Assembly (NCBI GenBank): GCA_039000165.1
Contig: JAWBTW010000003.1
Location: forward strand, 21,187-79,355
Origin: Candidatus Aenigmatarchaeota archaeon
Lineage (GTDB): Archaea > Aenigmatarchaeota > Aenigmatarchaeia > CG10238-14 > SCSR01
Reading direction: 5' to 3'
DNA length: 58,169 nt
Position 1 is the first letter of the stretch, and every line of letters begins with the position of its first letter. The notes beneath the pieces were generated by a model. That model saw nothing but the letters and a program-made list of their open reading frames with translations. It had not been told where the DNA came from and searched no databases. Positions 51,854-58,169 of the stretch are shown in pieces. The position numbers were made by a program, and so were the translations under genes.

Positions 51854-54385
51854 ATGCAAGTTGATAGAATAGAGTTTTCAATTTTGAGCCCAGAAATGAT
51901 TAAGAAAATGAGCGTAGCAAAGATAACAAAAACTGAACTTTATGACCAAGAAGGTTATCCAATAGAAGGTGGGCTAATGGACCCAAGGCTTGGTGTAGTT
52001 GACCCAGGAATAAGGTGTAGAACATGTGGGGGAAGTGTTGGGGAATGTCATGGCCATTTTGGCTATCTTGAACTTACTCGTCCTGTAGTTCATGTTCACT
52101 ATGCAAAAATAATTTTAAGTCTCTTGAAATTGTGTTGCAAAAAGTGTGGTAGAGTTTTAATAGCTGAAAAGGATATACAAAAAATAAAAACGAAAAAAAT
52201 TCCTTTGAAGGAGATAGCCAAGCTTGCTAAAAAGAAATGTCCTTATTGTAACGCTGAACAAGGTAAAATAAAATTCATCAAACCTTACACTTTTCTTGAA
52301 GATAACGAAATCTTAAACCCGATAAAATTGAGAGAAAGACTTGAAAAAATTCCAAACGAAGACCTCGAAATTTTAGGTTTCAGGAACATGCGCCCAGAAT
52401 GGCTTATTTTAACGCTTTTGCCCATTCCTCCAGTAACTGTTAGACCTTCTATCACCTTAGAAACTGGTGAAAGATCAGAAGATGATTTAACACATAAGCT
52501 TGTTGATATTGTAAGGATTAATGAAAGGTTAAAAGAAAACATAGATCTTGGGGCGCCTGAGTTTATTATAGAAGATCTTTGGGAACTTTTACAATATCAT
52601 GTTGCAACATTTTTCGATAATGAAATAACAGGTGTACCCCCTGCAAGACATCGCTCAGGAAGAGTTCTTAAAACTTTATCACAAAGATTAAAAACAAAAG
52701 AGGGAAGATTCAGAGGAAACTTAGCAGGAAAAAGGGTAAACTTTTCGGCAAGGACTGTCATAAGTCCTGACTCGATGATTGATATAGATGAGGTTGGAGT
52801 TCCAGAAGCCATAGCAAAAGAACTAACAATTCCTGTAAGAGTTAACGAAAAAAATCTAGAAGAAATGAGAAGATTAGTTCTTAACGGAACTAATTGGCCT
52901 GGAGCTAACTACATAATAAGGCCAGATGGAAGAAGGAAAAAAGTAACCAATGAAAATAAAGAAGATTTAGCAAAAGAACTAGCTCCTGGCTATATAGTTG
53001 AAAGACATATAAGAGATGGTGACATAGCTCTTTTTAACAGACAACCAAGCTTACATAGAATGAGCTTAATGGCCCATAGGGTAAGAGTAATGCCTTTCAA
53101 AACTTTCAGGCTGAACTTATGTACTTGTCCTCCTTATAATGCAGATTTTGACGGTGATGAAATGAACCTTCATATCCCGCAGACAGAAGAGGCACAAGTC
53201 GAAGCACAAGAATTAATGATAGTACCTAAGCACATTAGAAGCCCTAGGTTTTCTGGACCGATAATAGGTGCTGTAAAAGATCATATTACTGGTTTGTACT
53301 TGTTAACTCATGGAAATAAAAAGTTTAAAAGAGAAGAGTTTGTCCAACTTATAAGAGCTGTTGATCAAGAAATAGAAATACCAGAAAAAGAGTATATGAC
53401 CGGGAAAGAGATATTTAGCCTTTTCCTTCCGAAAGACTTTTCTATAGAGCACAAAGCCAAATCATGCAGAGGTTGTGAAAAATGTTTGAAGGAAAAGTGT
53501 CCTTATGATGCTTATGTTGTAATAAAGAATGGAAAACTAATATGTGGAACTATAGATAAAGCAGCACTTGGAGAGGAAGACGGGAAAGTAATAGATAAAA
53601 TGGAGAAAGAATACGGAGCAATGTTCTTGAAAAAGTTTCTTTTCAATATTACAAGACTTTCTATTCAAGTTTTGATGAATTCCGGGTTTTCAATTAGTAT
53701 CTCAGATCAAGACCTGACAGAAGAAGAAACAAGAGAAATTAAAAATATCCTTGAAAAAATAAGAAAAGAAGTCGACGAACTCATAGAATCTTATGAAAAA
53801 GGGGAAATAAGAATTCTTGCCGGAAGAACTCCGAAAGAAAGTTTAGAGCATTTGATTAAGATAAAATTGAGGAACGGTTTAAACGAAGTAGGAAAGATTT
53901 TAGCTGAACGTATGAAAGAAAACCCAACCATAATAATGGCCAAAAGTGGAGCAAGGGGAAGTCTTGTAAACCTTGTTCAGACTGCAGCAGTCATAGGACA
54001 AGAGACTGTTATGGGTGAAAGAATGGAAAGAGGTTATCGCGAAAGAACATTCCCACATTTCAGAAGAGGGGATGTGAGTCTAGAAGCAAAAGGTTTTGTA
54101 GCAAGAGGGTTTAAAAATGGTCTAACACCTTTTGAATTTTTCTTTGATGCAATTAACAGTAGAGAGTCCTTGATGGACAAATCCCTCAAAACAAGACACT
54201 CGGGATACATGGAAAGAAGATTGGTAGGAGCTTTACAAGATTTGAAAGTAGAATATGATGGTAGTGTGAGAGATAGTGCTAAGAGAATTATTCAATTCTT
54301 ACCAGGGGAAGATGGACTCGACCCTTCAAAAATTAAAAAGGTGGGTATAGATGTCAGAGGAATTGCAGAAAAACTATTTGGATGA
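51854..54385 (+). CDS. rpo1N: RNA polymerase subunit Rpo1N (A')
   Basis: Zn motif CRTCG...CHGHFG; catalytic [11 protein letters not shown]. Confidence 0.98.
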
Positions 54386-55484
54386 AATAGCCTTGCCCAG
54401 AAAAATTGTTAAGGAAATAGAAGAAGTTGCTAAGGAGAAAAAATTAACTAAGGAACAGGTAAAGAAGTTAGAGGAAGAAGTAAAAAAAGAATATTTAAAA
54501 TCCATGTTTGAGCCTGGAGAAGCCATAGGCATAATCGCAGCTCAAAGCATTTCTGAACCTGCAACCCAAATGACCATGCGAACTTATCATTTTGCTGGCT
54601 CTGCTGGTATAAAAGTTACTTATGGATTACCCCGCTTAATTGAAATTTTCGACGCGAAGAAAAATCCTGAGACACCTATGATGACTATTTATCTTAAAAA
54701 AGAGTTTAACAACAAAGATGATGCAAAAAAAGTTGCTGAAAAAATTCTTGAAAAAAATGTTTCAAAATTGATGAAAAGAGCTTCTATAAACTTAAGTGAA
54801 GGTTTTATAGAAATTGAACCAATCGACCTAAGAAAAACTGAAAGTATCGGGAATGCTATAAAAGAAAATTTCAAAGACTTAAAGGTTTTGATAAAAAAGG
54901 ATAGAATAATAGCTAAACCTAAAAAAGAAATTGAAGTAAGGGAACTACAGAGATTAAGAGAAAAAATTCTGAACACAAAAGTCAGTGGAATAAAAGGTAT
55001 TTCCAACGTTATTGTGAGAAAAGAGGGTGAAGATTGGATAATAAACACCATAGGTTCTAACTTAGAAGAAGTTCTTAAGATGAAAGAAGTTGACTGTACC
55101 AGAACTATCACAAATGATATATACGAAACTGCTAGAGTTTTGGGAATAGAAGCTGCAAGGAACCTTATAATTAACGAGGCTCTTAAAACTTTAGAAGAAC
55201 AAGGATTAAACGTTGATATTCGTCATTTAATGCTTGTCGGAGATATAATGACAAGAAGCGGGACAATAAAACCAATAGGGAGATATGGAGTTGCAGGAGC
55301 TAAATCTTCAATATTAGCAAGAGCAGCTTTCGAAGAAACAATTAAACACTTAGTTAAAGCTTCTGTTAGAAATGAGATTGATAATTTCCAAGGAATCTTT
55401 GAAAATGTTATGATTGGACAAGTGGTTCCTGCCGGAACTGGAATGTTTGAACTAGTAGCAAGATTTGAAGAGGAAGAACAATGA
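54351..55484 (+). CDS. rpo1C: RNA polymerase subunit Rpo1C (A'')
   Basis: [42 protein letters not shown]. Start is ATG 54351 or TTG 54378. Confidence 0.97.
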
Positions 55485-55741
55485 GTTTAGCAAAAATAAT
55501 TCAAGATGCAATAAAAAGCAAAAAAGCGATAATAGGTTATAGAGAATCGATTAAATATTTGAAGTTAAACAGAGCAGAATTAATCATATTAGCAGAAAAC
55601 TCACCTGAAAAAATAAAAAAAGAAATTGAACATATAGCAAAAATTGGAAATATAAAGTTAGAGACTGTGAAAGAAAGCAAAGAACTAGGAATAATTTGCG
55701 GAAAACCGTTTCCAGTAACAACTGTAGTGATTAAAGGATAA
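55481..55741 (+). CDS. rpl30e: 50S ribosomal protein L30e
   Basis: IIGYRESIK...[12 protein letters not shown]; conserved operon position. Confidence 0.95.
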
Positions 55742-55743
55742 CT

Positions 55744-56166
55744 ATGAGCTTGACTTTCAACACAGAAACTATAAGGCTTATAACGCTATTCGAGAACCTT
55801 ACTGGAGCTAGAGTTAGAGATTGTATAGTAGACAAGGAAACAAATACTGTTTATTTTCTTGTAGAAGAAGGAATGGTAGGAAAAGCCATAGGAAAAAACG
55901 GAAACGTAGTTAAAAACACAGAAAAATTAATAGGAAAGAACATCAAAATATTCGAATTTTCAAACGACTTGAGAACTTTTGTTAAAAAGCTCATACCGCA
56001 AGCCAACGAAATAAGGATAAAAAATGAAAATAACACGATAACCGTAGAGGTAAAAGTAGATAAAAAAGAAAAACCTTTAATCATAGGAAGAGATGAGAAA
56101 AACTTAAAAATATTAAAACAATTATTTCAAAGAAATCACAAGGTTAGTGATTTAATTGTAAGGTGA
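55744..56166 (+). CDS. nusA: Transcription factor NusA (archaeal, KH domains)
   Basis: [27 protein letters not shown]; conserved position. Confidence 0.95.
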
Positions 56167-56170
56167 GAAA

Positions 56171-56596
56171 ATGGGAAGAGGTTTATTTGCGGCGAGGAAA
56201 TTGAAGAAAACAAGGAAAAAAATGAAATGGAAAGATATACACTATAAAAGAAGAGTCTTACAACTTTGGAAAAAAGATCCCTTAGAAGGGGCTCCTCAAG
56301 CTAGGGGAATTGTTATAGACAAACGTGGAGTAGAACAAAGAAAACCTGCTTCTGGTTTAATAAAGGCTGTAAGAGTCCAACTCCTTAAAAATAACGTCCA
56401 AGTTACCGCTCACGTTCCTGGAGAAGGAGCAATAGATATAATTAACGAGCACGATGAAGTACTTATAGAAAGTATTGGTGGCGCGCAAGGTGGGCCAAAA
56501 GGAAGTATGTGGGGGATAAAATATAAAGTTGTAAAAGTTAATGGAGTAGCTTTAAGTGAAATTTTAGCTGGAAAGAAACAAAAACCAACAAGGTAA
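56171..56596 (+). CDS. rps12: 30S ribosomal protein S12 (uS12), divergent
   Basis: [48 protein letters not shown]. Confidence 0.96.
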
Positions 56597-56602
56597 AAGA
56601 TT

Positions 56603-57202
56603 ATGGAAATAAAAATTTTTGGAAAATGGAGTACAGAGGGGATAGAAGTTAAAGATCCTGGTTTAGCAAAATACATAAACCTTAAACCAGTAATAGTTCC
56701 TCGCTCTGGAGGAAAGCACGCTAAACAACAATTCCATAAGTCTAAAATGAACATTGTTGAAAGACTTATGAATAAGCTTATGGTTCCTGGCCATAGAGGG
56801 AAGAAACATGTAATCAGCTCAGATCATTGTGTGGGAAAAACTTCTATTCAATATAAAATTGTTAAAAAAGCTTTTGAAAAAATTGAACAAATAACGAAGA
56901 AAAACCCGATAGAAGTTTTGGTAGGAGCTATAGAAAACGCTGCACTAAGAGAAGAGATAACTTCCTATCAACTTGGAGGAATAATCGTTAGAAGAGCTGT
57001 AGTTACTAGTCCACAAAGAAGAGTCGACTTGGCTTTGAGAAATATAGTTCAAGCAGCTTACAGGAAAGCTTTTGGTAAAAAGGAAAATATGGTTGATGCC
57101 TTAGTAAACGAAATAATTGCTGCTTATAATAATGATGCAAGTAAGAGTGAAGCAATAAAAGAAAAGGAAAGAATAGAAAGGGAAGCTGAAGGTGCAAGAT
57201 AA
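56603..57202 (+). CDS. rps7: 30S ribosomal protein S7 (uS7)
   Basis: NIVERLMNKLM, NPIEVLV.AIENAALREE, SPQRRVD.A, EGAR. Confidence 0.97.
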   Translation: MEIKIFGKWSTEGIEVKDPGLAKYINLKPVIVPRSGGKHAKQQFHKSKMNIVERLMNKLMVPGHRGKKHVISSDHCVGKTSIQYKIVKKAFEKIEQITKKNPIEVLVGAIENAALREEITSYQLGGIIVRRAVVTSPQRRVDLALRNIVQAAYRKAFGKKENMVDALVNEIIAAYNNDASKSEAIKEKERIEREAEGAR

Positions 57203-57400
57203 AAATGTTAAAATTTTGGATACAATTTTAACTAGTTTGTTCAAAACTAAAGAATAGAATAATTCTCTGGCCGAAATCTTTTTACCTTTGGGTTTTACCT
57301 TTTGGTTAGCCAAAAAATGACAAAGAATAAAAATTTATAATCGAAAAGTGAAGATTATAACTTATAATTGCAAAAAAAAAGATTAAGGAGGCGAAAACAA

Positions 57401-58169
57401 TTGGCAAAAAAAGAGATGATCGAAAGAATTAAGGAAGTGATGAAGGATCCAGCAAGAATAAGAAATGTTGCAACAAGCTCCCATGTACATCATGGTAAAA
57501 CAGCCTTAACTGATAATCTAATGGCTGGAGCAGGAATGCTAGCAGAAGAAATGGCAGGAAAAGTAATGTATACTTGGTTTGATGAACAAGAAAGGAGAAG
57601 ACAATTAACAATTTATGGAGCAAACGTTTCAATGGTTCATGAATATGAAGGTAAAGATTATTTGATTAACTTAGTGGATACACCTGGTCATGTAGATTTT
57701 GGTGGTGATGTAACCAGAGCTATGCGTGCTGTCGATGGCACCATTGTTTTGGTCTGCGCAGTAGAGGGGATAATGCCACAAACAGAGACTGTTTTTAGAC
57801 AAGCTTTAAGGGAATATGTTAAACCTGTACTTTTTATAAACAAGACTGACAGACTGATTAAAGAATTAAAACTATCACCCGAAGACATACAAAAAAGATT
57901 TGAGGAAATTATTCGAGATGTTAATATTTTGATTCAAAAGTATGCTCCTGAAGAATTTAAAAATAAATGGTTGGTAAGTGTTGCCAATGGAAGTGTAGCC
58001 TTTGGTTCTGCAACCAAAAGATGGGCAATCTCTATTCCTTACATGCAAAAAACTGGAATCACTTTCAAGGAAATTATCGAGCTAACCTTAGCTGGAAAAG
58101 AAGATGAACTAGCTAAAAAAGCTCCTTTACATCAGGTTGTTTTGGATATGATTATTAAACATCTACCAA
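57401..58169 (+). CDS. fusA: Elongation factor 2 (N-terminal G domain; runs off the window end; absent from ORF track)
   Basis: TTG start after SD AAGGAGG; [59 protein letters not shown]; follows rps7. Confidence 0.96.

Follow-up and report, generated by a model that had tools for sequence, protein, structure and literature searches.

The last gene of the window (by which we mean the whole stretch of DNA analysed, 58,169 nucleotides from a contig of a small DPANN archaeon of the Candidatus Aenigmatarchaeota) encodes an archaeal elongation factor 2 (aEF-2) in which a histidine stands in place of the P-loop Asp of translational GTPases (trGTPases). We refer to such proteins as His-type and to those with the usual residue as Asp-type. 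As judged from aligned sequences, the two residues that serve as protein ligands of the cation, together with one further acid in switch I, have been replaced jointly and repeatedly in the His type. We hold with about even confidence that the EF-2 of the source organism is a single, working, diphthamide-modified translocase with a lineage-conserved His-type GTPase centre, whose His replaces the cation held by Asp; the part of this reading in which His does the cation's job is one that we infer.

The gene is preceded by a run of transcription and ribosomal protein genes. The features, all on the plus strand, are:

54351–55484, plus strand, rpoA'' (archaeal equivalog model, above cut-off)
55481–55741, plus strand, ribosomal protein L30e (archaeal equivalog model, 66.6 bits, below the cut-off of 77)
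55744–56166, plus strand, NusA-like protein (archaeal equivalog model, above cut-off)
56171–56596, plus strand, ribosomal protein S12 (archaeal equivalog model, above cut-off)
56603–57202, plus strand, ribosomal protein S7 (archaeal equivalog model, above cut-off)
57401–58168, plus strand, 5' part of the aEF-2 gene, encoding the G domain (TIGR00490 match), running off the end of contig C3
57476–57505, plus strand, G1 or P-loop (motif read in the translated frame and alignment)
57575–57577, plus strand, switch-I Trp, where Asp-type EF-2 has the initial Asp of LDFD; the Gly position follows nine residues on
57590–57613, plus strand, switch I or G2, ERRRQLTI (motif read and alignment)
57677–57691, plus strand, G3 or switch II, DTPGH; the catalytic His is retained
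57839–57850, plus strand, G4, NKTD, intact

The operon rpoA''-L30e-NusA-S12-S7 (54351–57202) thus ends with EF-2, which is truncated where window and contig C3 both end. Its start is likely to be the in-frame TTG at 57401, which lies 9 nt past a GGAGG (57387–57391) and predicts an N-terminus that agrees with those of orthologues; alternative starts are an ATG at 57416 and a TTG at 57368, where the frame opens.

According to a model of Kuhle and Ficner, the P-loop Asp carboxylate and the carbonyl of the switch-I Gly (RGITI) reportedly bind a monovalent cation in trGTPases. Neither feature is present here: the Asp, which precedes the P-loop Lys by three residues, is replaced by His (codon 57488–57490) and the cation-ligand Gly by Gln (57602–57604). 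Further changes are Ala to Ser (57479–57481) and the second Thr to Ala (57503–57505) in G1, and Leu (57605–57607) at the Ile position of switch I. What is canonical is the Mg-binding Thr of both G1 (GKT) and G2 (QLTI, 57608–57610), the P-loop Lys, the switch-II His, G4 and G5 (VAFGSA). A sequence-only reading of this DNA had described the G1, switch-I, G3 and G4 motifs correctly and had placed them correctly; it overlooked a third switch-I change, that of Asp to Trp at 57575–57577.

Is this the EF-2 with which the organism translates? The N-terminal fragment matches the aEF-2 equivalog TIGR00490 with 425.8 bits (E 2.8e-127, model positions 5–255), and when the entire assembly (783 kb in 25 contigs, 91.6% complete) was searched for the family, there was just one other aEF-2 piece, a C-terminal one (322.7 bits, positions 472–719) at the end of contig C17, where it is followed by EF-1alpha. 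The two pieces are presumably one gene split by an assembly gap that joins C3 to C17, with about 215 residues, the middle third of the protein, absent from the assembly; it is this split alone that puts each piece under the full-length TIGR00490 cut-off. A 99%-identical orthologue (P0001) is full-length, with 730 aa and all EF-2 Pfam domains. The diphthamide acceptor motif (HEDPVHRG, matching HxDxxHRG) is intact on the C17 piece, and the genome has the diphthamide synthesis genes Dph2 (214 bits) and Dph5 (275 bits), for which the sequence-only reading had advised a search. (The Dph2 match, at C7:25265–26119 on the plus strand and so outside the window, reads through one TAA, which could be a stop overrun or another small insert.) That reading had also called the gene operonic and probably the main EF-2, and had named a canonical second copy as the thing to look for. 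Its place next to S7 and its being the only EF-2 found in the genome bear this out: searches with the protein and with TIGR00490 found no second EF-2 in the source genome at its 91.6% completeness, 37 genomes of relatives have one EF-2 each, and the closed genome of Nanopusillus acidilobi has one, of His type, among four trGTPase matches. In five His-type genomes from a scan across all species genomes (see below), Nanopusillus included, four or five trGTPases were matched and the sole EF-2 among them was of His type.

Set beside the canonical aEF-2 structures (Pyrococcus horikoshii, 5h7j and 5h7k; M. nitroreducens, 6u43 and 6u45), the protein belongs to the same family, with the same five domains and the same operon, and residues 3–260 align without gaps to P. 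horikoshii 5h7k (E 1.7e-118). G3, G4, G5, the Mg-binding Thr, the catalytic His and the diphthamide motif are shared. The P-loop Asp, switch-I Asp, Gly and Ile of the canonical protein are, in contrast, His, Trp, Gln and Leu; of the residues replaced, the P-loop Asp and the Gly are the named cation ligands (PMC8244253). On the features tested, then, the protein is an aEF-2 in every one of them, and it lacks the two sequence features of the cation-dependent trGTPase model.

The four positions behave as a package. We aligned 72 EF-2 sequences and scored all of the roughly 730 columns for their ability to separate His-type from Asp-type proteins. Only four columns do so, namely the P-loop Asp/His and, in switch I, the Asp, the Gly and the Ile directly after that Gly; no other column of this alignment discriminates between the types. 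Residues were then counted in 258 His-type and 103 Asp-type sequences, which are related and hence not independent. The switch-I Asp position has Trp in 213 of the His-type sequences, Asn in 44 and Asp in one (Trp or Asn in 257/258), versus Asp in 95 of the Asp-type sequences. The Gly position has Gly in none of the 258 versus 89 of the 103, and the Ile position has Leu or Met in 257 of the His-type versus Ile in 98 of the Asp-type proteins. The P-loop Asp to His and switch-I Asp to Trp/Asn changes therefore pair almost perfectly, P0150 being the single His-type sequence that keeps the switch-I Asp, and Gly to non-Gly and Ile to Leu/Met changes accompany them. In some Asp-type proteins (P0134, P0136, P0170 and P0178) the switch-I pair is Gln-Met or Arg-Met, so the Gly/Ile change can exist without Asp to His; the reverse, Asp to His without the Gly/Ile change, was not seen among the EF-2s compared. 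Across the His-type lineages the Gly position holds Q, E, L, R, K or C, a variability more in line with relaxation than with one particular new contact.

The His type is widespread. A DNA pattern for H[VIM]HHGK has matches in 133 of 371 Aenigmatarchaeota species genomes whereas the reversed control pattern has none, so the matches are not due to chance. Both His codons (CAT and CAC) are in use; the residue has therefore been kept through synonymous change. Three subtypes occur in the phylum: SSHVHHGKT with ER.R[QE]LT[IV], in the families of the source organism; [SA]HIHHGKT with ERERLMTI; and AHIHHGKT with ERQRELTI. Thirteen sampled genomes from other families, two of them in the source organism's own order, have the canonical AHIDHGKTT with EQERGITI. 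A scan across all species genomes gave at least 120 His-type stretches; all of those listed are EF-2 and none has the switch-I Gly. Going by their labels, the matches listed include Woese-, Pace- and Nanoarchaeota, Micrarchaeota (some labelled Marsarchaeota) and Aenigmatarchaeota; Nanopusillus acidilobi, which is in culture, and a lineage of Thermoplasmata/Lutacidiplasmatales are also among them. The sequence-only reading had mentioned HxHHGK variants in other DPANN EF-2s, and this proves correct. Among the papers searched for the motif, we found none that describes a His-type P-loop in EF-2.

The EF-2 tree was made under LG+G4 with a quick search after removal of the trait columns, and its placement of long branches is less safe than that from a site-heterogeneous model. 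Aenigmatarchaeota EF-2s form one well-supported clade that holds both types, and the source organism's subtype adjoins canonical EF-2s of its own order. The Thermoplasmata His-type EF-2 lies beside a canonical Poseidoniia protein, and canonical sequences are sister to Nanopusillus and, separately, to the Woese/Pace group. The minimum number of state changes on the tree is seven for the P-loop, seven for the switch-I Asp and ten for the Gly. Five independent pairs can be drawn on well-supported branches and all five are concordant, with five pairs setting the floor of the sign test at p = 0.06. A single origin of the His type across all lineages was rejected with and without Thermoplasmata: forcing all His types into one clade cost 390 log-likelihood units (p-AU 4e-6) and forcing the non-Thermoplasmata ones together cost 323. 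A single His clade within Aenigmatarchaeota was not rejected (p-AU 0.12). Gains, losses and transfers of the His type are indistinguishable on this tree without a rooted species tree.

What do the replaced residues do? In M. nitroreducens EF-2 the Asp31 carboxylate and the Gly69 carbonyl make up a nascent monovalent-cation site (PMC8244253); the changed residues match these published ligands, in keeping with the sequence-only statement that the G1 Asp helps to bind a monovalent cation. In EF-Tu the corresponding Asp21 has been called a second catalytic residue, since the D21A change cuts ribosome-stimulated GTPase activity about 1000-fold; this P-loop Asp is described as conserved in all trGTPases except eIF2gamma, and in structures of ribosome-bound EF-G it coordinates Mg2+ near A2662 (PMC5084732). 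What the cation does on the ribosome is disputed, and K+ stimulates only the intrinsic EF-Tu reaction, with no stimulation on the ribosome (PMC5084732), so the identity of the cation that would have to be replaced is uncertain. The cation sites vary in EFGII, Ria1, Snu114, eEF2, aIF5B and eIF2gamma, and the His of aEF-2 is not among the variants listed (PMC4342817). The switch-I Gly had been described as near-invariant, which overstates the case, since the position is Cys, Ser or Ala in eEF2, and Gln, Arg or Lys in some archaeal EF-2s of the Asp type (PMC4342817).

Other GTPases offer partial parallels. In eIF2gamma (Ala, Asn) and EFGII (P-loop Gly), too, one or both of the P-loop Asp and the switch-I Gly are naturally absent (PMC4342817, PMC8244253). 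Unlike His-type EF-2, these are paralogs or factors without the usual ribosomal activation, and they have a small residue at the Asp site instead of His; Thermus thermophilus EF-G-2 lacks the catalytic His as well, whereas the His-type main translocase keeps it. At the same P-loop register, three residues before the Lys, dynamin Ser41 holds Na+/K+ and GBP1 Arg48 is a cationic finger (PMC5084822), and the Asp or His of EF-2 falls in the same register of the motif. GBP1 and dynamin differ from EF-2 in belonging to another GTPase family, in being activated by dimerisation rather than by the ribosome, and in that the finger is Arg, not His. By analogy with GBP1 Arg48 we infer a possible finger role for the P-loop His of EF-2.

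The mechanism that we propose runs as follows. In ordinary trGTPases the P-loop Asp would hold a cation beside the triphosphate. Off the ribosome this would be K+ or Na+, held jointly by the carbonyl of the switch-I Gly, and on the ribosome it may be Mg2+ bridging to a phosphate of the sarcin-ricin loop (SRL). In the His type an imidazole or imidazolium at the P-loop position would take over the job of the cation, its ring reaching beyond a carboxylate, and could form a hydrogen bond with the gamma-phosphate or the bridging oxygen and/or the SRL phosphate, or neutralise their charge. Were His to do this job the cation pocket would be unneeded, and the switch-I Gly, Ile and Asp would consequently be free, or forced, to change. 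GTP hydrolysis would still be triggered by the ribosome via the conserved switch-II His. We put forward only tentatively, with slightly less than even confidence, that His-type EF-2 fires without an Asp-held metal, with the P-loop His as finger and/or SRL contact, and that the four-residue package arose or was swapped several times.

An explanation that needs no new mechanism, and that we think unlikely but worth keeping in mind, is compensated drift: the cation would be kept by phosphate oxygens and backbone carbonyls, His would be tolerated and perhaps neutral, and switch I would simply repack. Imidazole nitrogen is, as a matter of general chemistry, a poor ligand for K+ or Na+, which speaks against this, and the near-perfect pairing of the two Asp losses, repeated across lineages, points to a functional switch instead. 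Drift does draw support from the second protein ligand being a backbone carbonyl, because loss of the Gly side chain need not then abolish the site (PMC8244253) and loss of Gly alone does not exclude cation binding. It also draws support from eEF2, which has the Asp without the Gly (PMC4342817), so that loss of Gly alone does not mean loss of the cation, and from the intermediates of the Asp type whose switch I has Q/M or R/M. The roughly 1000-fold cost of Asp to Ala in EF-Tu (PMC5084732) nevertheless makes a neutral replacement of Asp by His unlikely.

A poorer account, to which we give little credence, is regulatory or environmental tuning, in which His would confer sensitivity to pH or to another metal (a transition metal or Mg2+ at HxHH) in host-dependent or acid-soil archaea. 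The three P-loop His are clustered (H-V-H-H), but two of the three are canonical (AHxDHGK). The variant occurs in DPANN and in a Thermoplasmata lineage, but the sampled lineages carry five taxon labels and have no evident habitat in common. The aIF2gamma and a GTPBP-like factor of the source genome also lack the P-loop Asp; against this, in four further His-type lineages the remaining trGTPases for the most part retain it, so there is no genome-wide shift. Least credible of all, and essentially excluded, is that the gene is a degenerate paralog, a pseudogene or an assembly artefact with a canonical EF-2 elsewhere doing the work: the split over two contig ends, the missing middle third and the incomplete genome would allow it, but it is contradicted by the sole copy in the source genome and 37 relatives, the full-length 99%-identical orthologue, the operon position, the intact catalytic and diphthamide motifs, the strong conservation of His-type EF-2 across the phylum and the closed Nanopusillus genome in which this EF-2 stands alone.

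Separately, we considered a genome-wide loss of the P-loop Asp as a general cause. This was rejected, as EF-1alpha, aIF2gamma and aIF5B keep the Asp in the Pace-, Woese- and Micrarchaeota and Thermoplasmata His-type genomes; the exceptions are the aIF5B of Nanopusillus and, in the source lineage, aIF2gamma and the GTPBP-like factor.

Returning to the proposal that His stands in for an Asp-held metal, its interest lies in the debate over how the Asp acts, be it by way of a monovalent cation, of Mg2+ as a bridge to the ribosome or of its charge alone. The His-type EF-2, which is natural, essential and widespread, provides matched His- and Asp-type proteins within one phylum and one cultured organism, Nanopusillus acidilobi, and the defined four-residue swap allows a direct test of ribosomal GTPase chemistry. 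The variant also marks lineages and may aid the reading of DPANN EF-2 trees.

Some other trGTPases met with in this work are of note. The aIF2gamma of the source genome (L212, C15:10541–11107, plus strand, outside the window) has GHVAHGKTT, with Asp to Ala as in eukaryotic eIF2gamma, and keeps KRGITI. This Ala form is found in 39 of the 371 genomes of the phylum, all in families that have the source organism's EF-2 subtype. A GTPBP-like, EF-Tu/SelB-like GTPase (L210, 533 aa, C7:12275–12934, minus strand, outside the window) has GHVAHGKST, and its counterparts in genomes G127, G144 and G153 have GHVHHGKST, with ERRL, ERNL or KRRL in switch I versus ERGL, making this a second trGTPase with Asp to His/Ala. 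The aIF5B of Nanopusillus acidilobi (G371, L230) has GHVGAGKTS, without the P-loop Asp, and in the aIF2gamma of a Micrarchaeota genome (G374, L237) switch I reads KRNMTI, the Gly position being Asn, as it is in eIF2gamma.

The EF-2 genes of several relatives are interrupted. Those of G003 (L023), G005 (L239), G015 (L240), G019 (L241), G020 (L242) and G024 (L238) contain hairpin-bearing inserts of 13–32 nt, most of which are not multiples of three, with up to five in the first 300 nt in G019; no such insert is present in the EF-2 part in the window (57401–58168). Some insert sites are common to more than one genus: one lies inside G1 and others follow WFDE, GHVD and GGDV. Of the inserts, two were checked by hand and fit a relaxed bulge-helix-bulge intron, in which a cut behind the second base of the bulge brings back the reading frame. 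Inteins also occur, of about 200–480 residues between the P-loop Lys and Thr (...HHGK/C...HN/T...), in G006, G025, G031 and G038 (L031–L034), and the same GKT site is used in P0032, P0050, P0121, P0123 and P0172. LAGLIDADG and intein-splicing domains are present in the longer inteins; the site is a classic one for inteins, occupied here in His-type EF-2.
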